A stretch of DNA of 64,000 bases from Bdellovibrionota bacterium (lineage in GTDB: Bacteria; Bdellovibrionota; Bdellovibrionia; Bdellovibrionales; JAEYZS01): positions 19,459 through 83,458 of the forward strand of contig JAZKEU010000007.1 of assembly GCA_040386775.1 (NCBI GenBank), read 5' to 3'. Each line of letters begins with the position of its first letter. Within the stretch, counting starts at the first letter, position 1. This document shows, piece by piece, positions 3,799-51,178 of this stretch. A program made the translations under genes and the position numbers. The notes beneath the pieces were generated by a model. That model saw nothing but the letters and a program-made list of their open reading frames with translations, ran no database searches and was not told the DNA's origin.

Positions 3799-4884
3799 AT
3801 GAAGAACAAGGATGTTTTAAATTATTTTTTGCTACTCTTATTTCTATCTGTGAATTCATTCGCAGCAGAGAGGTATGAGTTTTATACGGGTGCTCGTCAA
3901 ATGGGAATGGGCGGAGCCTCTATTGCCGTGGTGAACGACGAAACGGCATTGATTCAAAACCCCGCGGCTCTCGGAAAACTCAGAGAAAAATACCTAACAC
4001 TTGTGGACCCAGAAGTTCATATGGGTGAAACAACTGCGCAAATACTTAAAGACAAAGATTATGATTTAACCAAAACTATGGATCCTCAAGATCTTTTGGA
4101 TATTTTGAACGCAAATCCCGACAAGCACTTTCATTCTAAAGTTCAACTCTTCCCATCGTTGGTGTTCCCCAATTTTGGTATCGGGCTTCTCGCCAGTTAC
4201 AACTATGATGCGGAGGTGACGAGTGCAACAAGCGAATACAATTTGCGCTATAGAAATGATTATGGAGTTTTGCTTGGGTATAATTTCAGATTCTTTGATG
4301 GAATTATTAAGCTCGGTTTCAATGCAAAATACATTAACCGCGTCGAAATAGACGATCAGTATCCGACGACTTCCACAGGAATGGCTTGGAAAGACATCGT
4401 CAACGAAGGAACTGCAATTGGCTCTGATGTAGCATTGATGATGACGGGTCCATGGAAATATCTTCCGACGCTAGCGTTGGTATTAAAGGACGTCGGCGAT
4501 ACTAGCTACAGCCTCGGAGGCGGAATGTTTTATAGCGGACGTCCCGAGCCTACAAAAACGGATCAGACATTGGATGTGGGTTTCTCTCTTTCTCCTATAT
4601 TGGGTAAGTATTCCAGAATGCAGTTGGTGGCGGAGTACCGTGACGTGATGACGGATGATGACGATGAGGTGACTGCGCGTCGTTTGCATTATGGTCTGGA
4701 ATTTAACTTCTTCGACAAACTTTTCCTTCGCGGTGGTATGAACCAAGGCTATTGGACGGCAGGGGCGGAAGTGGCGAGTGAAAACATGCAATTTCAATTT
4801 GCAGCCTACGGAGAGGAAATAGGAACTAGGGATGCGGAAAGAGAAGATAGAAGATATATCTTCAAATTCGCGTTGAGGTTTTGA
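3799..4884 (+). CDS. outer-membrane beta-barrel protein, paralog 2 (GMG...NPA family)
   Basis: 361 aa. Signal peptide ..LFLSVNSFA/AE. Motifs ARQMGMGGASIA..IQNPAALG and GMNQGYWTAGAEV...EDRRYIFKFALRF (terminal Phe). Confidence 0.7.
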   Translation: MKNKDVLNYFLLLLFLSVNSFAAERYEFYTGARQMGMGGASIAVVNDETALIQNPAALGKLREKYLTLVDPEVHMGETTAQILKDKDYDLTKTMDPQDLLDILNANPDKHFHSKVQLFPSLVFPNFGIGLLASYNYDAEVTSATSEYNLRYRNDYGVLLGYNFRFFDGIIKLGFNAKYINRVEIDDQYPTTSTGMAWKDIVNEGTAIGSDVALMMTGPWKYLPTLALVLKDVGDTSYSLGGGMFYSGRPEPTKTDQTLDVGFSLSPILGKYSRMQLVAEYRDVMTDDDDEVTARRLHYGLEFNFFDKLFLRGGMNQGYWTAGAEVASENMQFQFAAYGEEIGTRDAEREDRRYIFKFALRF

Positions 4885-4886
4885 GA

Positions 4887-5714
4887 ATGAAAAGAATATT
4901 TTTATTTTTAACCATTTTATGTCTCTTGAGCACTTCTTGCAAAAATGCATTTGAAGAAATGTCTTCAAAAGATTCTGAAGCAGCAATTCTATATTCTGCG
5001 AGACAACATTTGTCGGCGGGGAGATGGACAGAGGCGCTTTCGGAATTTGAAAAATTGCCAGCAGCAACGCTAGCAGAAACTGAAGTCGTGGTGGATAGAG
5101 CTTCTGCATATTCGGGGAGATGCGGGCTGGACTTCTTGGGTCTTTCGGATTTGATTGAAAATATTGGAACAACTCCGCTTATGGAATTGTTAATGACGAA
5201 TTTTCCAGCAACTAGCGCCGCTAATTATGCAGACTGCAAATTGGCCGAAGATCTTTTAAAAACCGTAGCAGACACGAGCGGTGTGGTTTCGACGGAAGAC
5301 GGACGATTCCTGATGGCTTTCAATGCTCTTGCAAAAATCGGAGTAATTTTAAATTTTAGAGCAGATGCTGATGAAAATGATGCTGTCGATGCAGGTTGGG
5401 ATCCTTGTGACGGGAATGGAGCAACGGATCTTCCCGCTGCTGAAGTGAGTGAAGTAGGAACAGGGATTGTTTTATTCTACAAAAACTTACAAGGCTTTAG
5501 CTTTGGATCCGACATCACGTCAGAAATCGAGGCGATCTGTACAGATCCAATGGTGGATGGTTCGCCGGTGGATTTTTGTGACGAAGAAGATGCGACAGCT
5601 TATACGAATGCTTATAGACAACTTATTCGAGGATTTATCCGTGATGATACGGATGGGATCGGGCTAGCTATAGATGCAGGACAAGGAGTGGCCGTCAGTG
5701 CTTGTGAGCCGTAA
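4887..5714 (+). CDS. acidic Cys-rich lipoprotein (unknown function)
   Basis: The track ORF starts at TTG 4881, which overlaps the upstream stop. ATG 4887 gives MKRIFLFLTILCLLSTS/C, a lipobox. Acidic with multiple Cys. Same position relative to a barrel gene as ORF 2986. Confidence 0.65.
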   Translation: MKRIFLFLTILCLLSTSCKNAFEEMSSKDSEAAILYSARQHLSAGRWTEALSEFEKLPAATLAETEVVVDRASAYSGRCGLDFLGLSDLIENIGTTPLMELLMTNFPATSAANYADCKLAEDLLKTVADTSGVVSTEDGRFLMAFNALAKIGVILNFRADADENDAVDAGWDPCDGNGATDLPAAEVSEVGTGIVLFYKNLQGFSFGSDITSEIEAICTDPMVDGSPVDFCDEEDATAYTNAYRQLIRGFIRDDTDGIGLAIDAGQGVAVSACEP

Positions 5715-6843
5715 GGGTAAACAAACATTTTTATTTTCTATTCTGATGGGATTATTGCTCATCACTGGAAATTCTTACGCGCGTGAATTGTACAATCGCA
5801 ATATGTCAGTGCGTGCATTGGGAATGGGAAATGCTTTTACACCCATCGCCCGTGGAATGGACGCTTTATTTTTCAACCCTGCAGGTTTAGCAAAAACAAA
5901 AGAAATCACTCTTACAGCTTTAAAATTTAAAATCGGAGTCAATGGCATTGATGCTTATGAGGATGCGCAAGATTTCGATGGCGATAATTATGCGGATACG
6001 TTGAGACAATTCTATGGAGATAATTTATGGATCGGTGGCGGGGCCGTCTCAGGGATATCGACTCCTAATTTTGCAGCAGCAATTTATGACTCTTTCAATG
6101 TGAGTGCGGATTTATCAAATCCTGCGTTACCAAGTTTTGAAGTGGATTTTGTCAATGACTACGGTATCGCCACGGGATTCGGAATGGAATTGGCTCCAGG
6201 TTTAGCATTAGGATTTGTAGGAAAGAGAATCAATCGTGCGGGTTCGACAGTTGAGATTCCAGTATCCTCACTGGCTTCACTTGATAACGATGATCTCGAA
6301 GAGCAATTGGACAATAGAGGCTTGGGATATTCTTTGGATGTGGGTGCCATGATGACTTTCCCAACGCCAGTAAAGCCAACACTTTCTTTTGTAATGAGAG
6401 ATGTGGGAAATACTAAATTTTCGTTGGACACAGGAATTAGAAATCCACCCACAGACAAGAGCGAAATGATTGGCGCATTGTCTCTTGAATTGGATGTTCC
6501 AGGAGTAACGATCACTCCCGTATTGGAAATGAGGCACATTGGTTCTGACGAAGAGATTCATATTGGTAAAAAGCTTCACATGGGCGTGGAAGTGGATCTG
6601 CCGGGTATTGATTTGAGGGCCGGTCTCAATCAGGGCTACTACACAGCAGGAGTAGCTCTAAATCTAGGTATAATTATGCTCGATTTCGCAACGTATGGTG
6701 TTGAATTGGGAGAGTACCCTGGCCAGCACGAAGATCGCAGATATGTTCTAGAATTAACCATAGATTTTGGCTTTGACCCCGCAAATGGAGTCTTCCTAGG
6801 CCTCAACAAAGAAAACCGAAAAAGATTAAAACAAAGACGCTAA
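5704..6843 (+). CDS. outer-membrane beta-barrel protein, paralog 3 (GMG...NPAGL family)
   Basis: Track ORF 5674..6843. In-frame GTG 5704 gives (M)SRKGKQTFLFSILMGLLLITGNSYA/RE and overlaps the upstream stop. Motifs RALGMGNAF..FFNPAGLA and GLNQGYYTAGVAL..EDRRYVLELTIDF, followed by a basic 24-aa tail. Confidence 0.7.
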   Translation: MSRKGKQTFLFSILMGLLLITGNSYARELYNRNMSVRALGMGNAFTPIARGMDALFFNPAGLAKTKEITLTALKFKIGVNGIDAYEDAQDFDGDNYADTLRQFYGDNLWIGGGAVSGISTPNFAAAIYDSFNVSADLSNPALPSFEVDFVNDYGIATGFGMELAPGLALGFVGKRINRAGSTVEIPVSSLASLDNDDLEEQLDNRGLGYSLDVGAMMTFPTPVKPTLSFVMRDVGNTKFSLDTGIRNPPTDKSEMIGALSLELDVPGVTITPVLEMRHIGSDEEIHIGKKLHMGVEVDLPGIDLRAGLNQGYYTAGVALNLGIIMLDFATYGVELGEYPGQHEDRRYVLELTIDFGFDPANGVFLGLNKENRKRLKQRR

Positions 6844-6916
6844 AGGTGAGCCGCACCTTTTCCAAAGGTTAGCGTCATTTTGACGCAAGTCTTTGCAAAA
6901 GGTGCGGCTCACCTTT
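6842..6916. repeat. 75-nt palindromic extragenic element (two inverted ~36-38 nt units); right arm also a T-tailed terminator
   Basis: AAAGGTGAGCCGCACCTTTTCCAAAGGTTAGCGTCATT ... TGACGCAAGTCTTTGCAAAAGGTGCGGCTCACCTTT, then TATATTTTTTT. The left unit recurs 37/38 identical at 59539..59576. Confidence 0.75.
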
Positions 6917-6924
6917 ATATTTTT

Positions 6925-9657
6925 TTGGTGCTAAATCTTATTTTTGTAAAAAATCCTGAAGAGAAGAGACAATTGTTTTTGAAGTCAGATTTGACTCAAA
7001 AAACTTGGGTGGTATCGGATTTAACATCTAAAATTGCCTTTCAAAAAGAACTTTTTAAAACGCAAAAATTAATTCCAGATGAATCCCTATTGAGAGCGCA
7101 AGAATTGTGGATCAAGCTCACCAAAAGACTTCGTGGGGATTTAAGATTTATTTCTTCAGAAACGGCGCAGATGTTTACACAGCAGCTGTTATCCAATGCT
7201 GAAGAGGAATGGCAGAAGCGTCCTGGGGTCTCAAAACTTTTGCATTCCTACATGCAGATTTTGATGCCGCTCCTGAGTCATGAGCAAAATTTTGAAGCCA
7301 TGAAGGAATTTTTTAAGAATAGTGTCGAGAGTTTTCAGAAGTGGGGACATTGGTACTTGCTCTCACGTGAGATTTATAATTCTTTCTTAGATCAAAAGAT
7401 GATTTTGTCCACTTGGGCGTCATCGATTCTAGTGAATGAAACAGACTTTCAAGATGTATGGAATAGAAAACTTATTTTTGATTTGGGAGCGCAACTTCAA
7501 CCAATAGAAAGTGAACTTATACAGCATCTTTCTAAATTCTTAGATGTGGACGTCATCGTTCCGCATCCATCTTGGAAATCAGAATATTCAAAGGCCCTTA
7601 AAAGTTATGATTTGTTAATTTCTGGTAAGCCTCCGGTGACCGAAAAAATCGAGCATGGTCTATCTAGAAATTTTATGAAGTTTACAACTCAACTTGCAGA
7701 AGTGCAGAATTTGAGCTCTGAGTTGAGGAAGCAAATTTCCGCTGGAATTAAGCCGACGGAGATCGCTATCGTAGCTCCAGACATTGGAGTTTATTGGCCG
7801 GTGCTCTATGAATATCTCAAGATCGAAGGGATTCCGTACCAAAGAAAAATTCAAACTCCGTTAAAAACTTATCCAGAAATCATGTATTGGATTTCCAAAC
7901 TCAAAATTGAAGCTGGCGAGATTGAATATGCAGATCTAGAGATCAACACTTATTCAGAAGCTGAGACTCTGCCGTTGAAGTATGATGAATTCCAATCTCT
8001 CTACACTAATCTCTATGAAATTTCTGATCTCAAAAGAAATAGAAACATTGAAAAATTATTTTCTTTAAAAAACCAATCCAAATTCATGACGGTGAAAGAA
8101 TTTATCACTTGGGGCTTAACTCTCTGGAAAGAATCTTGGTCCCAAGAAAGAGTAAATATTCTGATCGAAAAGCTTTTAGCAGAAATTCCGATGCATTTGA
8201 AGTTTGATTCCAAACAATGGGTAAGACTTGTTGATAGTTTCGCTTCGAGACTTGAGATCACGACGGACGAAGGTTTCCCTGAAGGCGTGCATTGTGTAGA
8301 TTTAGTTTCTCTGAAAGATTTGGATCTCAAGCACGCCCACCTTATGGGATTGACGGATCAAGCACTGAGATCTATGACGACCACTTTGATTTCGGAATTT
8401 GATATTCAAAAGCTCAAGCAAGATTTTGGTTTTATGGTGGCAGAGCCCGAAAGAACAGAACTAGAATTTGAAGTGAAGTGGAACCTCGATAGCACAAAGA
8501 TTAATTTTTCCATGTCTTATCCTCAGACGGATTTTGATGGAAACCAGATGTCGCCTTCCATCGTTTGGTTGACGGGCGCAATCACGCAGCACGGAGATAA
8601 AATTCCATTAAAGATTCCGGAAACATCAAGGCTTTTACAGATTCAGCAATCCGATTACCAAACGATTTCAACTCTTCAAGGTTGGGTTGATGGCGATAAG
8701 AAGCTTGAAAGACTTAGGCAGGATCAGGGCGAAGACATTCAAGCTTGGAAACTACAAAATCATCTCGAAAAAGTTTCCGCTTCGCAAATTGAAGACTATT
8801 TGAAATGTCCATTCATCAATGCTTCCAAAAAAATCCTAAGTTTAAATGATCTACCAGATTTGGATCTAGATATTGATTACCAGACTCGAGGAAGACTTCT
8901 GCACGGAGTTGCAGAGCTGATCTATAAAAATCATTCTGACCTCAATGTCGATAATTCTACGGTTGCCCAATATTTTGATCAAGTTCGCCTGGAAATAGGA
9001 ACGCCGATCTTTGATGAGAATGTTTGGGCCGGACAAAAAAAGAAATACATGAAGATGATCGATAATTTTTTGGTGTTTGAGCGGGAATGGAAAAATAAAT
9101 TTCCCGAGATCAAAGAACAGTACCAAGAAAAGGATTTTGAAATTCATATTGATATAGCTACAGGGAATATTTCTAAAGAGGCCACAGCGGATTCCGTTCT
9201 TTTGAGAGGAAGAATTGATCGTATTGACATTGATCAAAGAGAGCAGATCTGCGTGGTCATTGACTATAAATTTGATTCTAGTGGCAAGAGCAACCATAAC
9301 CGATGGATCGACGAGAATGAACTGCAATTGGTTCTCTATGCCATGGCCATCGAAAAAGGTGCACTCAACAAGAAATTGGATGTGATCGGTGCGGTTTACT
9401 ATGGATTTAAAAAGATCGATCGTGAAAAAGGATTTTTAATCTTAGAGGCCGATGGATTTATGTTCACAGTGAACTCCAGAAAAGCCCACAAGATCAGTCA
9501 CGATAAAAAATTGGAACTTTACGGTAAGGCTCAAGAAATTATAAAAAACACTTTGGGTGGCATGAAAGCCGGAGAATACAACCCAAACCCAAGTGATGTG
9601 AGTCTATGTAAAACCTGTAACTGGAGAAATTTGTGTCGAGCCCCACATCTGAATTAA
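6925..9657 (+). CDS. addB: AddB/RexB-like PD-(D/E)XK nuclease subunit of helicase-nuclease complex (start uncertain)
   Basis: About 910 aa. C-terminal nuclease motif VVIDYKF plus a four-Cys pattern (CPFINA ... LCKTCNWRNLC) typical of the AddB Fe-S nuclease domain. Overlaps the downstream UvrD-like gene. The track start (TTG 6880) lies inside the terminator palindrome. Candidate starts: TTG 6925, GTG 6928, TTG 6973. Confidence 0.75.
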   Translation: MVLNLIFVKNPEEKRQLFLKSDLTQKTWVVSDLTSKIAFQKELFKTQKLIPDESLLRAQELWIKLTKRLRGDLRFISSETAQMFTQQLLSNAEEEWQKRPGVSKLLHSYMQILMPLLSHEQNFEAMKEFFKNSVESFQKWGHWYLLSREIYNSFLDQKMILSTWASSILVNETDFQDVWNRKLIFDLGAQLQPIESELIQHLSKFLDVDVIVPHPSWKSEYSKALKSYDLLISGKPPVTEKIEHGLSRNFMKFTTQLAEVQNLSSELRKQISAGIKPTEIAIVAPDIGVYWPVLYEYLKIEGIPYQRKIQTPLKTYPEIMYWISKLKIEAGEIEYADLEINTYSEAETLPLKYDEFQSLYTNLYEISDLKRNRNIEKLFSLKNQSKFMTVKEFITWGLTLWKESWSQERVNILIEKLLAEIPMHLKFDSKQWVRLVDSFASRLEITTDEGFPEGVHCVDLVSLKDLDLKHAHLMGLTDQALRSMTTTLISEFDIQKLKQDFGFMVAEPERTELEFEVKWNLDSTKINFSMSYPQTDFDGNQMSPSIVWLTGAITQHGDKIPLKIPETSRLLQIQQSDYQTISTLQGWVDGDKKLERLRQDQGEDIQAWKLQNHLEKVSASQIEDYLKCPFINASKKILSLNDLPDLDLDIDYQTRGRLLHGVAELIYKNHSDLNVDNSTVAQYFDQVRLEIGTPIFDENVWAGQKKKYMKMIDNFLVFEREWKNKFPEIKEQYQEKDFEIHIDIATGNISKEATADSVLLRGRIDRIDIDQREQICVVIDYKFDSSGKSNHNRWIDENELQLVLYAMAIEKGALNKKLDVIGAVYYGFKKIDREKGFLILEADGFMFTVNSRKAHKISHDKKLELYGKAQEIIKNTLGGMKAGEYNPNPSDVSLCKTCNWRNLCRAPHLN

Positions 9658-15989: not shown

Positions 15990-16301
15990 TCAAGACGCCT
16001 TAACATCCACTATAAATTTCAATCCCGCATTATCCACAATAGCCTGCAGAGCCAGTTGTACAAATCTTTCTTGAGAATATCCTAACACCTTGGCAAATCT
16101 AGCGGCTCTCTCCGGGCTAACCGTTTTTCGTTCTTTCTCGATGTCATTAAGATGAGACTTGGATATTCCAAGTATTTTAGCAAACTCAGGTTGAGTCATT
16201 TCTTCTCCACGACGAATCGCCCATAGCAATCGACTAAAGCGAACAGGCCCACCGGTTCGATTTTCTAAAAATTTTATGGCATCGCTCTTTTTAGTACTCA
16301 T
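15990..16301 (-). CDS. XRE-family HTH antitoxin (HigA-like)
   Basis: ATG 16301 gives MSTKKSD.. and overlaps the upstream toxin stop by 11 nt. HTH segment MTQPEFAKILGISKSHLNDIEKERKTVS. Confidence 0.75.
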   Translation of the reverse strand: MSTKKSDAIKFLENRTGGPVRFSRLLWAIRRGEEMTQPEFAKILGISKSHLNDIEKERKTVSPERAARFAKVLGYSQERFVQLALQAIVDNAGLKFIVDVKAS

Positions 16302-16569
16302 GTTTATCAATCCTTTCAACCAACACGAATAAAATCCTATCGTGTATTATCCTATAATAAGCTCTATAGCCTTTATTTAATCGAATAGAGTAATAACCTT
16401 TTAACTTACCTTTTAATGGTTCATCGTGATATCCACGTATTTTTCTAACCATTTCAAGAGATTCTTTTTCAACGCTATCAATCCAGTCTTGAAGTTTATC
16501 TGCTATATAAACTGGAAGTTTTGCTAATTGTTTTTTAACAGTATTACTCAATACAACTTTTTTAATCAT
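16291..16569 (-). CDS. RelE/ParE-superfamily toxin (HigB-like, toxin-first order)
   Basis: 92 aa. ..GYHDEPLKGKLKGYYSIRLNKGYRAYYRI...VLVERIDKHEY is a typical RelE/ParE C-terminal pattern. Overlaps the HTH gene downstream. Confidence 0.75.
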   Translation of the reverse strand: MIKKVVLSNTVKKQLAKLPVYIADKLQDWIDSVEKESLEMVRKIRGYHDEPLKGKLKGYYSIRLNKGYRAYYRIIHDRILFVLVERIDKHEY

Positions 16570-42656: not shown

Positions 42657-43153
42657 TCTACTTTTAGTGTTGCAGGGATTCCTGTAACAATCACACCACT
42701 AGGAACATCACGAGTCACTACAGAGTTTGCGCCCACGACAGAGCTGTCACCGATCGTAATATTTCCTAAAATTTTTGCGCCTGCTCCGATAATCACTTTG
42801 TTTCCGATAGTTGGGTGTCTCTTTTTATCTTCAAAATTTTTTCCACCGAGAGTAACTCCGTGAAAGATCAAGCAATCATCACCGACGATTGCGGTTTCGC
42901 CAATCACAACGCCCATGCCATGATCGATCACGACTCTTTTGCCTAGGCGAGCGCCTGGATGAATTTCGATCCCTGTTAAGAGTCTTCCGATTTCTGAAAC
43001 GAGCCTTGCCAGGATATAAAGTTTAGCCTGATATAGTGGATGAGCAATTCTATGAAAGCCTATAGCTTTTACGCCAGGATAACAAATAAACACTTCGAGC
43101 AAGGATTTGGCTGCGGGGTCATAATTTTTGTACGCTCTTAAGAACTCAAACAT
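42653..43153 (-). CDS. cysE: serine O-acetyltransferase
   Basis: 166 aa. ..[14 protein letters not shown].., hexapeptide repeats [41 protein letters not shown]. Confidence 0.85.
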
Positions 43154-43267
43154 GGGCCTAAGTTATAGAAATATTATCTAAAGATCAACGAATTAGCTTG
43201 AGTCTTATATTCTTTTTGAACCCGAATATATTGATCTTTGTTTGCTGAATGTGCTAACTAAGTGTCT

Positions 43268-44110: not shown

Positions 44111-44766
44111 TGCTATATGTAGTTGCTCTTCCCATCGGAAATCTCGAGGATATCACATTGAGGGCTCTCAAGCTCTTGCGAGAGGCCGACGTGATCATCG
44201 GGGAAGAACGCAAAGAACTCATTCCCATGCTAAAACATTTCGAAGTAGATTTTCATTCTAAGACTTTAGAGTTCTTAAATGAGCATTCGGATAAAGAAGA
44301 CCTTCAGCATTTGAAAGGTCTTTGCAAAGATAAGAATGTCGTTCTGGTTTCAGATTGTGGAACACCGGTGTTTTGTGATCCCGGCGCTCACTTGATTTCA
44401 CTTTGCAGAAAAGAAAAGATTTCAGTGATTTCTGCACCTGGTGCTTCAAGTTTGATGACTCTTTTGAGTTTGTCTTCAGAAAAACTTTTAAAATTTCAAT
44501 TTGTTGGATTCTTGCCTCGCGAAAAAGAAGATCGCCAAAGAGAAATTGCAAAACTTAAAAATATCAAAGAAAGCTTTATCGTGATGGATACGCCTTATCG
44601 CTTAAAGGCCACCATCGATCAATTGGCTCAAGCGATGTCTGGTCGTAGAGCGCTTTTGGGTTGCGATCTCACTCAAAGCAACGAGCTTGTAATTGAAGAC
44701 ACGCTCTCCAAAATCAACGCTCAGCTTGGTGACGAAAAAAGAGAGTTTATTCTTTTAGTTTACTGA
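44110..44766 (+). CDS. rsmI: tetrapyrrole-methylase-fold SAM methyltransferase (RsmI-like 16S rRNA 2'-O-methyltransferase)
   Basis: ATG 44110 overlaps the ttcA stop. MLYVVALPIGNLEDITLRALKLLREADVIIGEE is the RsmI N-terminal pattern. Shorter than typical RsmI. Confidence 0.65.
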   Translation: MLYVVALPIGNLEDITLRALKLLREADVIIGEERKELIPMLKHFEVDFHSKTLEFLNEHSDKEDLQHLKGLCKDKNVVLVSDCGTPVFCDPGAHLISLCRKEKISVISAPGASSLMTLLSLSSEKLLKFQFVGFLPREKEDRQREIAKLKNIKESFIVMDTPYRLKATIDQLAQAMSGRRALLGCDLTQSNELVIEDTLSKINAQLGDEKREFILLVY

Positions 44767-44983
44767 TCTTATTTAAAATATCTATTTTAATTTTATCAGT
44801 AGCAGATTTATTGAATTTAGAATTCATTAAATGCTTAAAACTATTTTGTAATGTGATTATATGCTTGTAATATCTTTGACACATTTTACACAAAGCCAAG
44901 TGAAGTTTTATTTCTATTTTCTTTATAATTCCAATATCTTCAGATGAACTAATTTTTTTTGTTACTTCTCGACAAGTCATCAT
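44747..44983 (-). CDS. zf-HC2 anti-sigma factor (short, no TM)
   Basis: 78 aa. MMTCREV...LHLALCKMCQ matches the H-x3-C-x2-C anti-sigma zinc motif. ATGA overlap with the upstream ECF sigma stop. Confidence 0.65.
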   Translation of the reverse strand: MMTCREVTKKISSSEDIGIIKKIEIKLHLALCKMCQRYYKHIITLQNSFKHLMNSKFNKSATDKIKIDILNKISKLKE

Positions 44984-45564
44984 ATTACTACTGCCTTTTT
45001 TTCAATGCACTCTCGGAGTCTATTTCTGGCTCTATACAAGAGTACATTTAGGTTAGTCTCAGTAATCTCTAAAATCTTACAAATATCCTTAGAGCATTCT
45101 TCATCAATTTCTCTCATAGCAAAAGCCATACGCTGAATGTCCGGAAGCTTTTCTAAGCAATTCTCGATTTCTTCTTTAGTATTGGCTGTGAGAAGAAAAC
45201 TTTCAGGGTCAATTGGTGATTGAATCCAATGGCCAGTATTATCGAACCTATTGTTCATGTGATTATCAATTGGGTCGTTTTTATCCATTTTTTGTTTATT
45301 TCTAAATTGATCGTGAATTTTATTGTATAAAATTCCAAATAGATAAGTTTGTACTTTAGATCGAGCTTCAAACTTATGAGCAACATCGAGAAATGTTAAC
45401 CATGTGGATTGTGTACAGTCGGCTGCGGCCTCTTCATTGAGTCCCATGCCCAGGCAGCATCGATAGAGTTTGTCTGTATAAGCTTCTACCAGTTGGCTTA
45501 GAGCTAAAGGATCTTTAGCTCTAATTTTTAAAATAAAAATTTCGGTAGAAAATACATCTGACAT
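44980..45564 (-). CDS. ECF-type sigma-70 family RNA polymerase sigma factor
   Basis: 194 aa. Region 2 (..LVEAYTDKLYRCCLGM..STWLTF..) and region 4 HTH (..IQRMAFAMREIDEECSKDICKILEITETNLNVLLYRARNRLRE). Confidence 0.8.
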   Translation of the reverse strand: MSDVFSTEIFILKIRAKDPLALSQLVEAYTDKLYRCCLGMGLNEEAAADCTQSTWLTFLDVAHKFEARSKVQTYLFGILYNKIHDQFRNKQKMDKNDPIDNHMNNRFDNTGHWIQSPIDPESFLLTANTKEEIENCLEKLPDIQRMAFAMREIDEECSKDICKILEITETNLNVLLYRARNRLRECIEKKAVVI

Positions 45565-45567
45565 TAT

Positions 45568-46008
45568 TTATTTTTTTCGAAAAAGAATTTGATCTAAAGA
45601 AAAAGCTCCGGAACCCAATGTAAATACACAGAGGATAATGACGGCATACAATGCTGGACTAAGTTCTGATAATGCATAAATCGAAGTCACGTCCTCTTTA
45701 TGTGCAGTGAGAACGGCAACAACCATAATACAAAAAAGTGGTATGCAAGATAATCTCGTAAAAAAACCTACAAGAACAAAAATTCCAAAAATAACTTCAC
45801 TGAAGGCGGCCAGGGGAGCTTGAATTGTTGCTAATGGAATATTGAGAGATTTAAAGTATTCAATCGTTTTGCCTAAGTTTTGCAATTTGCCCCACCCTGC
45901 AGGGATAAATACCGTAGCGATGAAAAGGCGTGGAATTAATTTTAAAACTGGATCTAATATAAAAGATAAGCTTTGGACTTTACTATCAACTCTACTAAAA
46001 AAACCCAC
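45568..46008 (-). CDS. DoxX-family membrane protein
   Basis: 146 aa, 4 TM. ..RLFIATVFIPAGWGKL.. pattern. Lies 3 nt upstream of the sigma gene. Confidence 0.75.
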   Translation of the reverse strand: MGFFSRVDSKVQSLSFILDPVLKLIPRLFIATVFIPAGWGKLQNLGKTIEYFKSLNIPLATIQAPLAAFSEVIFGIFVLVGFFTRLSCIPLFCIMVVAVLTAHKEDVTSIYALSELSPALYAVIILCVFTLGSGAFSLDQILFRKK

Positions 46009-46049
46009 AGATATCTCCTCGTATATTTAATTGCTCCACAGAGTGAGCG

Positions 46050-46739
46050 TTATTTTTGAATGCCGACAATCAATCCACGACTGGAGAGCATTGCGAATAT
46101 CCTAAATAATTCTTCTGGACTACTAATCCTTTCAACAATTTTAGAAATATTCAAGCCTTCAAGTATCATATCTATAATTTTATAACTATTGAGATCAATT
46201 TTATCAGTAGTCACTTCGCTATCTGCGCGATATAGAAGGTAGAGGTGATCACCCTTTATGGCCAACTGTACTGCTGGATGGAGTTCCATTTTTAAAGTTA
46301 GTATCTCTTCTTCTGAATATTGCGACAATGTGGATATATCAACAGGAATTTTGTGATGGGCGGCAAATGTAATGCATTTCTTCCATTCAAAATTTGCAGA
46401 CTCATAAAGGTCCCTTTCATTTTTAACATCAAAAAAGAGGGGGAAGCTCTGGCTGTATTCACCGAGATTATTGAATTTTGAAGGATTTTCTTTAAGGAAT
46501 TTTCTAAGCTGACTTCTTAGGTCTCCCTTAGTTTTTTTAATCAATTCAAAAGTTTCAGGAAAATCTTCTTCAAGAGACTCTTCGATGCGCAGGAAGTAAG
46601 CATTTTGATAAACTTTCAACCTTTGAAGTTTAGAGAACTGTGCTGTCTCTCTAAGAGGTAGAGAGTTTAAAAACTCAGGCTCAAAATTTTTAGTAATGGC
46701 TTCTTTAAATTGAAGCTGTAATTTTTTTAGTGAATTCAC
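46050..46739 (-). CDS. DUF2063-family protein (partner/chaperone of MNIO enzymes; BufC/HvfC-like)
   Basis: 229 aa. N-terminal ..LKKLQLQFKEAI.. pattern. Overlaps the DUF692 gene by 35 nt, the canonical DUF692-DUF2063 pairing. Confidence 0.7.
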   Translation of the reverse strand: MNSLKKLQLQFKEAITKNFEPEFLNSLPLRETAQFSKLQRLKVYQNAYFLRIEESLEEDFPETFELIKKTKGDLRSQLRKFLKENPSKFNNLGEYSQSFPLFFDVKNERDLYESANFEWKKCITFAAHHKIPVDISTLSQYSEEEILTLKMELHPAVQLAIKGDHLYLLYRADSEVTTDKIDLNSYKIIDMILEGLNISKIVERISSPEELFRIFAMLSSRGLIVGIQK

Positions 46740-47544
46740 TTTTTACTCCGTTACGAATTTCATGAGCTCTGAGAATTTCTTTTTCTAGTTCTTGCCAGTT
46801 TGGAATAGCCCCATCTCTTTCTATCATTGATGTGAAGAAACCTAAATTCTGTTCTGTCCATTGAAATAGCTTCCAAACCTCTTCACACACGGGCTGGTCA
46901 TGTGTATCTATGAGATAACCGTCTTTGACGGAATGACCAGCAAGATGAATTTGTCCAACCCTCTCTAAGGGCATGGATTTTAAAAAATCTATGGGATTAA
47001 AACTATGATTTACTGAGCTGACATATATATTGTTAATGTCTAATAAAATACCGCAGTCAGCTTTCTCAGTTAATTCTTTTATAAATTGCCATTCTGTCAT
47101 TTCTGTATTTGTATATTCAAAATAACTAGATACATTTTCTATTAAAATTCTTTGGCCAAGAAAATCTTGTATCTTTAAAATTTTATCTGAAAGATATTTC
47201 AAATTCTCTTTGGTGAAAGGAACAGGTATTAGATCATGAATATTTTCACCATCAACACCTGTCCAGCAGAGATGATCTGAAATCCAAATAGGGTCAATGC
47301 TGTTTGCAAGTTCTTTTAAGCGCTTAAGATAATTCGCATCTATTGGATCAGCAGATCCAATATTCATAGAAACTCCATGAAGAGCAATAGGCAGCCTCTC
47401 TCTTATTTTTTCTAAATTAGAAAATGCTTTTGGTTTTAAACCATTTTGCCAATTCATGTAGTTTTCAGAGACGACTTCGCCCCATTGAATGCTTTTTGGT
47501 AGTTCGTTGAGAAATTGCATTACATGAGGACTCCTGATTCCCAC
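46705..47544 (-). CDS. DUF692 / MNIO (multinuclear non-heme iron oxidative) RiPP maturase, BufB/HvfB/MbnB-like
   Basis: 279 aa from GTG 47544. ..WGEVVSENYM.., ..LHGVSMNIGS.., ..WISDHLCW.., ..ILIENVSSYF.., ..GILLDINNIYVS.., ..QIHLAGH..LIDTH.. follow the DUF692 TIM-barrel metal-ligand pattern. An upstream ATG at 47580 is in frame but separated by a TAG (see findings). Confidence 0.88.
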   Translation of the reverse strand: MGIRSPHVMQFLNELPKSIQWGEVVSENYMNWQNGLKPKAFSNLEKIRERLPIALHGVSMNIGSADPIDANYLKRLKELANSIDPIWISDHLCWTGVDGENIHDLIPVPFTKENLKYLSDKILKIQDFLGQRILIENVSSYFEYTNTEMTEWQFIKELTEKADCGILLDINNIYVSSVNHSFNPIDFLKSMPLERVGQIHLAGHSVKDGYLIDTHDQPVCEEVWKLFQWTEQNLGFFTSMIERDGAIPNWQELEKEILRAHEIRNGVKSEFTKKITASI

Positions 47545-47589
47545 GCCGATACCCTAGTTTTTGAAAAGCTTTTGTTTCATATTTACCTT

Positions 47590-47614
47590 AAATTAAAGGG
47601 GGAGTTTATCCCCC
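47590..47614 (-). terminator. intercistronic stem-loop/attenuator between precursor and MNIO gene
   Basis: Minus strand reads GGGGGA TAAAC TCCCCC followed by TTTAATTT, then AAGG and the ATG at 47580. Confidence 0.55.
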
Positions 47615-47636
47615 ATGATATTAAAGAGTAACTAAG

Positions 47637-47876
47637 TTATTTAGCTTCTTCTTTAGCAGCGCAGTGGTCAGCACCTTTGCAATGATTTTTATCATTTTTG
47701 TTATCTTTGCCTTTACATGATGCTTTATCTTTAGCGCCGCAGCCCTCTTTACCTTTGCATGACGCTTTTTCAGCTCCAGCTTTTGGTTTTTCGTGATCAT
47801 TAGCTAAAGCTGCGCTTCCAGTTGCTAAACCAGAGATAAGAGCTGCTGCTAGTATCATTTTTGTATTGCGATTCAT
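47637..47876 (-). CDS. RiPP precursor peptide, Sec-signal + Cys/Lys/His-rich core (bufferin/HvfA-like)
   Basis: ATG 47876 preceded by GGAGGA. MNRNTKMILAAALISGLATGSAALA/NDHEKPKAGAEKASCKGKEGCGAKDKASCKGKDNKNDKNHCKGADHCAAKEEAK. Lies immediately upstream of the DUF692-DUF2063 pair. Confidence 0.75.
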   Translation of the reverse strand: MNRNTKMILAAALISGLATGSAALANDHEKPKAGAEKASCKGKEGCGAKDKASCKGKDNKNDKNHCKGADHCAAKEEAK

Positions 47877-48108
47877 TGAATCCTCCATCTTTTCGTAGCC
47901 GGAATTGGCTATCGATACATTAGGCCCATGGCACTACAGTATTAGTGTTTTAAGCTCATCCTTTATTACATAATTTTTTAGATTATATTTGTGGGATAGT
48001 TGATTCTGATTGAATCGCCTTATTTTGAGAAGTCTCGTTACTATAAAATTCATTTCTTAACATTAGCTTAAGACTTTAGGCTTGAGATTTATAAAGAGAT
48101 TTTTATTT

Positions 48109-48411
48109 TCAGCTCGATATTTTTTTACCAGATAACTTACTGTATAGCCACATAGCAAAAACACCAAAGAGCCACCAAAATGCAAATTGGATAAAGAAAG
48201 GCCAAATAGTGTTTTGGAGTTTATAGTTCAATGAAAATGGATAGAGGAGAAAGCAAGTGGCCAACACAAAACGATCAAAAATCGTTGAGAGAATATTTGT
48301 AGGCTCACTATTGGAGTAGAAAATAATATGTATAATTAGTAAAAAAAGCCAAACCCATGCAAAGATCATGGATTCAAAGACTTTCTTAAAGGTGGGCACG
48401 AGATGATACAT
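48109..48411 (-). CDS. small membrane protein, unknown function
   Basis: 100 aa with about 3 hydrophobic helices. Lies 15 nt downstream of the transglycosylase gene. Confidence 0.45.
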   Translation of the reverse strand: MYHLVPTFKKVFESMIFAWVWLFLLIIHIIFYSNSEPTNILSTIFDRFVLATCFLLYPFSLNYKLQNTIWPFFIQFAFWWLFGVFAMWLYSKLSGKKISS

Positions 48412-50746: not shown

Positions 50747-51178
50747 TTAATCGTCGCAGCAGTTCATATTGATAACTACTTCTTTAACCTTTTTGTCTTT
50801 GCCAGGAAGAATAACCAATTGCCAAGTGTCCTTATTTTCTTTCCAGCCTTCATTCAGTATGTAAGTTGGGGTACTATCACTAAGGAAATAACCAGTATTT
50901 TCGCCTAGTAAGAATTTAATTTCCTTGATGTCAGTTCCTGCTAATTGATTTTTTTTAAGAAGGCTTACTGCCATTTTCGATCTAGTGATTAAATTTGCTT
51001 TTTTGAATTCGGCTGCATTGAACTCTTGCTCACCAAAAAGAGATTTGGCTGATTTATAATTCAAGGTTATGCCATATATTTCTTTTTTTAATTCCGCTAA
51101 ACTAAAAATTCCAACAAATAAAATAAGAAAAACTATAGGAATATATATTAAAAATTTATTTTTCATTTTTTCTTCCAT
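50747..51178 (-). CDS. membrane-anchored hypothetical protein
   Basis: 143 aa. N-terminal TM FLIYIPIVFLILFVGIFSL. Ends ..NMNCCDD. Overlaps the upstream ORF by 16 nt. Confidence 0.45.
   Translation of the reverse strand: MEEKMKNKFLIYIPIVFLILFVGIFSLAELKKEIYGITLNYKSAKSLFGEQEFNAAEFKKANLITRSKMAVSLLKKNQLAGTDIKEIKFLLGENTGYFLSDSTPTYILNEGWKENKDTWQLVILPGKDKKVKEVVINMNCCDD

Follow-up and report, generated by a model that had tools for sequence, protein, structure and literature searches.

Bufferin biosynthetic gene clusters (BGCs) have a core of four genes, encoding a precursor peptide, an MNIO enzyme, a DUF2063 protein and a DoxX protein, and sigma and NrsF genes are found in the Buf1 BGCs (Antoine et al. 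2025, PMC12452194). The products of MNIO-PME1 enzyme pairs have been named captophorins, and their precursors are grouped as DUF2282, Lys-Cys (EGKCG) and Cys-Lys (2026, PMC13097082). 5-Thiooxazoles were shown in fontiphorin, oxazolin and gonophorin, and the MNIO-PME1 enzymes of four systems all install this group (PMC13097082). Here we analysed a six-gene cluster in a 64,000-nucleotide stretch of DNA (the window) from a Bdellovibrionota bacterium (GCA_040386775.1, contig JAZKEU010000007.1, positions 19,459 to 83,458). A preliminary description of the window had read this cluster as a bufferin/Hvf/gig-type operon for a ribosomally made peptide that is modified after translation (RiPP), and our results uphold this reading. 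Because curated models (the MNIO passes the BufB model), gene order and comparative context agree, we consider the cluster, with good confidence, to be an operon for a RiPP of the bufferin/captophorin type (bufABCD-like) that carries a regulator pair of its own at the 3' end. The oxazolone/thioamide chemistry that the preliminary description had given for Hvf is out of date, as it has since been reassigned to 5-thiooxazole (PMC13097082).

Bufferin 2 of Caulobacter vibrioides (bufA2B2C2; PMC11626156, PMC13097082) resembles the window in its BufB-family MNIO, its DUF2063 protein and its Sec-exported, Cys-rich precursor of the Cys-Lys group. The expected chemistry would likewise be 5-thiooxazole, and relatives of the window's precursor weakly match the BufA2 model. 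However, the precursor in the window is short and carries CKGxxxC units, whereas bufferin 2 is a folded domain with six Cys, and the catalytic Asp of the MNIO is followed by Gly in the window and by Asp in the bufferin 2 enzyme. The buf2 operon has no DoxX gene and its SigF/NrsF pair is encoded elsewhere, whereas DoxX, a sigma factor and a zinc-type anti-sigma factor (ZAS) all lie within the operon in the window. The hvf (oxazolin) operon of Haemophilus influenzae (PMC11252979, PMC7907618, PMC13097082) shares the four core genes. In H. influenzae, the extracytoplasmic function (ECF) sigma factor RpoE2 and the 67-aa cytoplasmic ZAS HrsE control the doxX (hvf) operon and respond to HOCl, H2O2 and paraquat, and in the Neisseria counterpart, the SigE regulon, the controlling pair is again of this kind, an ECF sigma factor with a small ZAS located in the cytoplasm (PMC7907618); the window has a similarly tiny cytoplasmic ZAS of 78 aa. 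In contrast, the Hvf precursor consists of EGKCG (Lys-Cys) repeats and its MNIO has ERDF (3BWW), whereas the window lacks EGKCG and has ERDG. The window proteins also fall under the cut-offs of the HvfB, HvfC and HvfX models, and the Haemophilus regulator genes are at a separate locus beside msrAB, whereas those of the window are the last two genes of the operon.

The bufferin 1/gig systems (Caulobacter buf1ABCD, Cupriavidus gigPABT, Legionella GIG) have the same order of four core genes including DoxX, regulation by an ECF sigma factor and a periplasmic copper-stress peptide as the product. However, their precursor is a DUF2282 domain and their anti-sigma factor is the membrane protein NrsF, both of which are absent from the cluster in the window. 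Fontiphorin of Fontimonas thermophila (fonABC; PMC13097082) likewise depends on an MNIO-PME1 pair and a repeat-type precursor rich in Lys and Cys, and 5-thiooxazole formation was shown biochemically; its repeats are of the Lys-Cys (EGKCG) type, and FonBC left substrates unprocessed in which Cys is followed by a charged residue (for example NACKG), which is the context found in the window's precursor. The preliminary description considered the precursor and the sigma gene inside the operon to be unusual. Both are in fact already catalogued: there are 1172 Cys-Lys repeat BGCs and 358 precursors of the DUF2282-plus-Cys-Lys type (PMC13097082, Tables S1 and S2), DoxX, NrsF and the TIGR02943 sigma factor occur in 67.8%, 14.1% and 8.6% of the BGCs, respectively, with Bdellovibrionota represented by 17 (PMC13097082), and the ZAS has a precedent (PMC7907618). 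Small ORFs with a signal peptide and 1-18 Cys, unclassified and numbering in the hundreds, have also been reported ahead of MNIO genes (PMC12452194), and no CKGK-type peptides were found in the portion of the supplement text of that paper that was available to us.

The six minus-strand ORFs occupy 44747-47888, with spacings of +92, -35, +41, +3 and -4 nt in the order of transcription (Table 1). The tight packing described earlier (-35 to +92 nt) and all the coordinates were thus reproduced. The closest relative of the locus was found in GCA_031374125.1 (JANMFM010000312.1; L001), and a further relative, L002, has an arrangement identical to that of the window, including the sigma and mini-ZAS genes.

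Table 1. Features of the operon in the window, listed in the direction of transcription
Feature	Position	Strand	Remarks
Conserved 17-mer CAATTCCGGCTACGAAA	47891..47907	-	Directly upstream of the ribosome-binding site; 5' leader or promoter-proximal
Precursor peptide gene, 79 aa	47637..47876	-	The longer ORF reading from ATG 47888 gives 83 aa
GC-rich hairpin and T-rich tract between precursor and MNIO genes	47598..47614	-	GGGGGATAAACTCCCCC then TTTAATTT
Ancestral MNIO start: ATG 47580, AAGG ribosome-binding site, eight codons MKQKLFKN, then TAG	47554..47580	-	
MNIO (DUF692), BufB family, 279-aa reading from GTG 47544	46705..47544	-	
DUF2063 partner, PME1/BufC/HvfC type	46050..46739	-	35-nt overlap with the MNIO gene
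DoxX-family membrane protein, BufD/HvfX type	45568..46008	-	PF07681
ECF sigma factor	44980..45564	-	Begins 3 nt past the DoxX stop codon
Small soluble zinc-type (ZAS) anti-sigma factor, 78 aa	44747..44983	-	ATGA overlap with the sigma stop codon

The first gene had been described as that of a small precursor with a Sec signal, and its ORF, read from ATG 47888, has 83 aa. The signal peptide and the Cys/Lys-rich core were both found, whereas the start appears to be misplaced: because a GGAGGA site lies 5 nt ahead of the second ATG (47876), the product is most likely the 79-aa peptide, judging from the sequence. The Sec signal peptide, MNRNTKMILAAALISGLATGSAALA, is canonical and has an AxA cleavage site. 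It precedes a 54-aa core, NDHEKPKAGAEKASCKGKEGCGAKDKASCKGKDNKNDKNHCKGADHCAAKEEAK, which contains 5 Cys, 14 Lys and 3 His and has a pI of 8.9. The Cys contexts are SCKG, GCGA, SCKG, HCKG and HCAA, with Lys-Gly after three of the five Cys, and an internal DNA repeat (47644-47681 and 47722-47759) corresponds to a duplicated CKGxxxCxAK unit. A Cys-containing peptide with a Sec signal is thus encoded directly ahead of the MNIO gene, and its multiple Cys-Lys dyads lie beside an MNIO-PME1 pair, so the precursor fits the published "Cys-Lys" group of MNIO-PME1 (captophorin/bufferin) precursors. The absence of EGKCG and DUF2282 from the core, as described earlier, was borne out by motif reading and by profile search: the EGKCG motif of the HvfA/oxazolin (Lys-Cys) type was not found in the window precursor, and PF10048 (DUF2282, BufA1) gave no match to it, with a score of 85.4 bits for the positive control, the homologous precursor of L015. 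The BufA2 model NF050166 (cut-off 60) also gave no match to the window precursor when E-values up to 10 were requested, a null result limited by the HMMER filters, which discard most matches above an E-value of about 0.1.

A word-index search of 5.8 billion proteins returned three homologues of the precursor, three of the DUF2063 partner and one of the anti-sigma factor. Scanning one genome for each GTDB species by pattern gave 12 precursor loci, one of which (L004) is the metagenome-assembled genome (MAG) contig of L001, and two further precursor homologues, L019 and L023, were reached through the anti-sigma factor. Altogether, 16 precursor homologues were obtained (L001/L004, L002, L003, L005-L015, L019 and L023), and the precursor gene lies directly upstream of the MNIO gene in all 16 loci. 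The loci from the word-index search and the pattern scan are all from MAGs, assigned to Bdellovibrionales, Bacteriovoracaceae/-ales, Opitutaceae, other Verrucomicrobiota, Ignavibacteriales and, in one case, Rickettsiales. The repeat unit of the relatives is SCKGK(E/D)GCKAK(E/D) or KNSCKGK, present in 3 to 10 copies, and several of their precursors scored 13-37 bits against the NCBIfam BufA2 model, all sub-threshold, with a best match of 36.7 bits (E = 3.7e-9). In L015, the precursor is a DUF2282 (BufA1) domain fused to a C-terminal tail of C(E/K)GK repeats. The dN/dS of the window's precursor gene was 0.09 against L001 and 0.13 against L002. These values, together with the CK repeats of the relatives, the DUF2282 fusion in L015 and the sub-threshold BufA2 matches, indicate that the small ORF is a real gene under selection and the presumptive substrate of the MNIO.

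Some of the homologous loci showed features of their own. The L015 precursor joins two precursor classes within one protein, and its cluster (4415-7791 of the Rickettsiales MAG contig CAXRIF010000002.1) has the order sigma, NrsF-like, precursor, MNIO and DUF2063. The L019 locus has the same six genes as the window in the same order, but adjoining dapB. L023 (101-5246, Logan SRR7637881) comprises precursor, MNIO, DUF2063 and DoxX genes followed by two genes of the carboxymuconolactone decarboxylase (CMD) family and by merR-merT-HMA, with an ECF and mini-ZAS pair transcribed divergently from the cluster; these neighbours hint at a link with mercury or peroxide stress. In L010 (9775-11571) and L011 (5737-7578), two distant relatives, the gene after the cluster encodes a large protein (about 600 aa) that contains WCHWCH and has the appearance of a thioredoxin-like DUF255 protein as read from its translation, with no domain search.

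The second gene product matched PF05114 (MbnB_TglH_ChrH) with an E-value of 1.4e-97 and passed the NCBI curated equivalog model NF050167 (MNIO_BufB) with 328.7 bits (cut-off 310), which places it in the BufB/HvfB clade of MNIO enzymes; its score against the HvfB model itself, 250.4 bits, is under the cut-off of 360. Among solved structures, it is related to PDB 3BWW (E = 1.3e-43) and MbnB (E = 3e-13). Alignment with these two and with 14 homologues revealed that the ligand positions are all kept (H56, H91, E136, D169, N172, H200, D213, H215 and E243), as is the ERD-motif Asp. The residue after this catalytic Asp is Gly (ERDG) in the window, L001, L002 and L019, whereas L023 has ERDD and the relatives from Opitutaceae and other Verrucomicrobiota have EWDD. 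The published enzymes have Asp at this position in Cys-Lys MNIOs and Phe in Lys-Cys MNIOs (PMC13097082). Because ERDG corresponds to neither, the modified Cys is not predictable from this residue.

The full metal-ligand pattern claimed for the enzyme therefore stands, but the claim of a full enzyme missed that codon 9 is TAG. The MNIO of L001 and L002 begins at an ATG 12 codons further upstream and has the N-terminus MKQKLFKNYGIGVGIR. The window retains this ancestral ATG (47580) together with AAGG, but a DNA alignment showed that its codon 9 is TAG (47556-47554), where L001 and L002 have TAT (Tyr). The N-terminal motif [YL]G[IFM]G[VLI]G[ILF]R (GxGxGxR) is kept in the 13 homologues with an intact 5' end (L013, the remaining member of the 14-homologue protein alignment, is degraded there) and also in L019. 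Its GxG part lies upstream of the restart codon GTG 47544, which is located 10 nt past the TAG. The 279-aa reading from this GTG is 12 residues shorter at its N-terminus than the ancestral protein, a loss that takes in part of the first barrel strand, while the remaining 279 codons are intact and the dN/dS of the gene against L001 is 0.076. Because the N-terminal motif is kept in relatives and TAG replaces TAT, the sequence indicates that the listed 279-aa ORF is a truncated reading of a gene bearing a nonsense codon. An exact look-up of the window MNIO gave no database record, since the genes as called do not match its truncated ORF. The TAG represents one of three things: a very recent change, a change tolerated via re-initiation at GTG 47544, or a base-calling error. 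We also considered whether TAG could be a recoded sense codon, which we rejected in view of the TAT in relatives and the absence of any sign of an altered genetic code.

The DUF2063 partner scored 44.8 bits against PF09836 (cut-off 27.2); with the PF05114 match of the MNIO (E = 1.4e-97), both domain assignments of the preliminary description were confirmed. In an AlphaFold model of the partner, a C-terminal strand/helix domain matched the RiPP recognition element (RRE) proteins TbiB1, lasso B1 and ThcOx (prob 0.85-1.0, E 0.02-0.2), and of these, the free-standing RREs TbiB1 and lasso B1 (prob 0.99-1.0) gave TM values of 0.6-0.7. A PME1-type partner with a predicted RRE-like C-terminal domain is thus encoded directly after the MNIO, as would be expected of a PME1/BufC protein. 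The fold search with this model recovered only the RRE-like C-terminal domain and not the DUF2063 N-terminal domain, and a sequence search of the PDB with the partner gave nothing significant and did not recover 3DEE. The fourth gene product matched PF07681 (DoxX) with 76.6 bits (cut-off 23.6) and has hydrophobic segments. In Caulobacter, DoxX is dispensable for modification (PMC11626156).

The fifth gene encodes an ECF sigma factor, with Sigma70_r2 and r4_2 over cut-off and 87.6 bits against TIGR02937 (cut-off 42.9); the best specific model was TIGR02943, at 110 bits (cut-off 162). The last gene had been assigned to a zf-HC2 anti-sigma factor. The Cys/His zinc motif of this assignment is present (C4...H28xxxC32xxC35), but Pfam zf-HC2 was not reached at cut-off, and only sub-threshold matches were found to the NCBIfam models antisigmaE (38.4 bits, cut-off 50) and RsrA (19.7 bits, cut-off 62.5, E = 7e-4). 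The protein has no hydrophobic segment (Kyte-Doolittle maximum 1.05 over 19 residues). An exhaustive HMMER search revealed 106 representative clusters related to it, nearly all of 74-104 aa, and C4, H28, C32 and C35 are the only invariant residues in 41 aligned homologues (75-93 aa), which from the sequences suggests a family of mini-ZAS proteins. By its motif, the pair thus consists of an ECF sigma factor and a translationally coupled, small cytoplasmic anti-sigma factor of the RsrA/HrsE kind. Among the homologues, the mini-ZAS gene follows a sigma gene in 7 of the 7 loci viewed, one of which (L024) is a 943-bp contig that shows the pair alone. The MNIO cluster is attached to the pair in three of the six loci with readable surroundings (L002, L019 and L023), and the pairs of L016, L020 and L022 have no adjoining MNIO cluster.

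No NrsF-like (DUF1109) ORF, as would be expected of a SigF-NrsF system, is present within the window cluster. In more distant relatives of the precursor, other regulators were read from the ORF translations, without profile search: an NrsF-like membrane protein beside the sigma gene in L011 and L015, and a histidine kinase in L009 and L014. Because the sigma gene of the window starts 3 nt past DoxX and the start of the anti-sigma gene overlaps the sigma stop codon, the position of the regulator pair as the last two genes of the operon implies positive autoregulation. In L001, the anti-sigma factor matches as two pieces in different frames (4129-4194 and 4188-4361) within 4129-4361, where no gene is called, which points to a frameshift or a MAG assembly error.

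Upstream of the precursor gene, the 17-mer listed in Table 1 is invariant in the window, L001 and L002, although its upstream surroundings diverge, and it occurs as a single copy in the window. A sigma-70 promoter scan returned 16 sites against 13.7 in shuffled sequence, i.e., no excess, and no motif pair at a fixed spacing was apparent by eye in the sequences upstream of the cluster in the window, L001, L002 and L019. The hairpin between the precursor and MNIO genes has a folding energy of -14.5 kcal/mol in the window, and L001 and L002 have a hairpin in the corresponding position, of -13.2 and -15.8 (z = -3.0), respectively, that of L002 differing in sequence. It is likely a partial terminator (attenuator) that sets an excess of precursor over enzyme. 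An Rfam search of the cluster found no RNA family.

Several results weigh against the identification as a bufferin/captophorin-type operon. The precursor has no family match in Pfam and NCBIfam, including DUF2282, BufA2 and any HvfA-type model in the library. The DUF2063 partner is far under the NCBIfam HvfC cut-off (17.8 vs 142), its AlphaFold model has a pLDDT of 63 and is thus of modest to low confidence, and the fold matches reach an E-value of only 0.02. The DoxX protein, at 77.0 bits, is slightly under the cut-off of 80 of the NCBIfam HvfX model. The Asp that follows the catalytic Asp in Cys-Lys MNIOs (Asp251 of BufB2) is Gly in the window, which consequently fits the Cys-Lys group by its precursor and departs from it by this residue. 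No convincing ECF or sigma-70 promoter was found upstream of the precursor, and the metal specificity and the inducer are carried over from other organisms. Furthermore, there is no intact full-length MNIO frame, and the production of active enzyme in this strain is uncertain because the frame is interrupted at codon 9.

The last of these points leads to a different explanation, which we regard as possible but on the doubtful side: the cluster is of the bufferin kind but no longer functions here, since a real and recent nonsense codon cripples the MNIO, and the precursor is exported unmodified or the operon is decaying. The TAG at codon 9 instead of TAT, and the position of the GxG part of the conserved motif upstream of the sole available restart codon, agree with this. 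Moreover, the ancestral ATG and its ribosome-binding site persist, so ribosomes would start there and stop after eight codons, and the frameshifted anti-sigma gene of L001 indicates damage to the cluster in a close relative too. However, all 279 remaining codons and all ligands are preserved, the dN/dS of 0.076 gives no sign of relaxed selection, the GTG 10 nt past the TAG makes termination-reinitiation plausible, and a single-base assembly error is possible at this site. The idea that the small ORF is not the substrate at all, but an unrelated Lys-rich secreted peptide or a spurious ORF, with the MNIO acting elsewhere, seems very improbable. It could draw on the lack of a curated family match, the low-complexity composition and the mere three homologues among the 5.8 billion proteins of the word-index search. 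These are countered by the strong ribosome-binding site, the canonical signal peptide with its AxA site, the dN/dS of 0.09 and 0.13 with conserved Cys positions, the location directly upstream of the MNIO gene in 16 of 16 loci from four phyla, and the fusion of one homologue (L015) to a bona fide DUF2282 bufferin domain.

It is also conceivable, though we think rather unlikely, that the peptide is modified but serves mainly in oxidative or chlorine stress or against other thiophilic metals (Hg, Au, Cd) rather than in copper buffering. ZAS anti-sigma factors are thiol/redox sensors, and the RpoE2/HrsE pair behind the Haemophilus hvf/doxX operon is responsive to HOCl, H2O2 and paraquat (PMC7907618). 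The L023 cluster adjoins CMD (carboxymuconolactone decarboxylase/peroxidase-like) genes and merR-merT-HMA, and MerC-bufferin fusions are on record (PMC12452194). On the other hand, all characterised members, i.e., bufferins, oxazolin, fontiphorin and bulbicupramide, bind copper, and the Caulobacter buf operons are induced by Cu and not by Fe, Zn or Mn (PMC11626156).

For the preferred reading, a copper-buffering bufferin/captophorin-type operon, we infer the chemistry, metal binding, inducer and promoter by analogy with the described systems, while the gene families and their order, the ligands, the signal peptide, the ZAS motif, the hairpin and the stop codon are seen in the sequence itself. 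The soluble zinc-type anti-sigma factor would keep the ECF sigma factor in the cytoplasm until its Cys/His zinc site is attacked under thiol-reactive stress (oxidants such as HOCl or H2O2, perhaps thiophilic metals), which sets the sigma factor free. The freed factor would then act at a promoter upstream of the precursor gene to transcribe the operon, and induction would feed itself because the sigma and anti-sigma genes end the same unit, while the hairpin after the precursor gene may cause precursor mRNA to exceed enzyme mRNA. In the cytoplasm, an MNIO-DUF2063 complex, with the precursor held by the RRE-like domain of the partner, would oxidise core Cys residues, with 5-thiooxazole (-4 Da per Cys) as the probable product; of the five Cys in this Lys-rich core, the three in C-K-G would be the likeliest sites. 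After Sec export and cleavage behind ALA, the product would be a basic peptide of 54 aa that acts in the periplasm as a buffer for Cu(I)/Cu(II). DoxX would act as an accessory membrane protein. In this particular genome, the MNIO may be made only by re-initiation at GTG 47544, or the cluster may just have been inactivated, or the TAG may be a sequencing error.

The preliminary description also noted a more AT-rich 3' half of the cluster and proposed acquisition. The AT shift is real: the GC content of the cluster is 0.344, against 0.389 for the window, the lowest among stretches of the same length (0.1st percentile, 3.1 kb). It is, however, not confined to the 3' half but covers five of the six genes, with 0.224 in the anti-sigma gene, an unremarkable 0.354 in the sigma gene and 0.34-0.36 in the others, the precursor gene having 0.40. 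A similar shift is seen in L001 (0.347 vs 0.392) and, more weakly, in L002 (0.353 vs 0.372). L001 and L002 carry the cluster between the rsmI/ttcA neighbours as well, and the dN/dS against L001 is about 0.08-0.10 for every cluster gene, so all of them are under purifying selection. We therefore rejected a recent horizontal acquisition. Because the neighbours are shared with L002 while the MNIO proteins are only 78% identical, any acquisition predates the divergence from L002. The six-gene cassette at another site in L019 is compatible with an older mobility of the unit. In the comparison of the window with L001 (43262-47876), we also observed a dS of 0.15-0.32 for the cluster genes, vs 0.43 for the rsmI-like and 0.79 for the ttcA-like gene, a difference that could reflect the codon bias of AT-rich genes or a later exchange of the cluster between lineages.

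On one side, the cluster is flanked by genes for a PP-loop ATPase (ttcA-like) and a TP_methylase (rsmI-like), and the convergent rsmI-like gene shares 20 nt with the 3' end of the anti-sigma gene. The opposite flank holds a small membrane ORF and a gene for an SLT-domain protein. A hydrophobic 100-aa ORF with no Pfam match (48109-48411, minus strand) lies directly upstream of the cluster, and its C-terminal end is apparently conserved at the start of L002. Because a counterpart is absent from the L019 cassette, this ORF is probably not part of the operon. In L001, a PIN-domain/MazE-type toxin-antitoxin pair (5889-6473) is located between the ttcA-like gene and a hexapeptide transferase gene, where the window has only a 108-nt spacer (43153-43262). 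Elsewhere in the window, two small minus-strand ORFs, 16291-16569 and 50747-51178, have an unusually low GC content of 0.287 and 0.303, respectively; the latter has no Pfam match and precedes a gene for a DUF6973 protein.

The kind of operon found here is already described and well catalogued, and the present locus is an ordinary member from a little-sampled phylum, which adds a Bdellovibrionota example to a very large, recently defined RiPP class and illustrates that a precursor type unseen by curated models is still placeable through its context. The compact six-gene version with the ECF/ZAS switch inside the operon lends itself, as a self-contained unit, to heterologous study, an MNIO of the Cys-Lys type that has Gly where the selectivity residue is proposed to lie could serve as a test of the published selectivity rule, and the natural codon-9 nonsense variant could reveal whether the N-terminal strand of the MNIO is dispensable; these three points leave the understanding of the class unchanged. 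Tentatively, one may go further and propose that the SCKGK(E/D)GC/KNSCKG peptides of Bdellovibrionota, Verrucomicrobiota and Ignavibacteriales form a distinct unnamed sub-family of metallophores of the bufferin type, with a different selectivity residue (ERDG) in the MNIOs of the window's clade, and that the self-inducing six-gene cassette, which includes its own redox-sensing ECF/mini-ZAS switch, has moved between chromosomal sites (rsmI here, dapB in L019). If this were true, predatory bacteria could gain an oxidant- or copper-triggered periplasmic shield.

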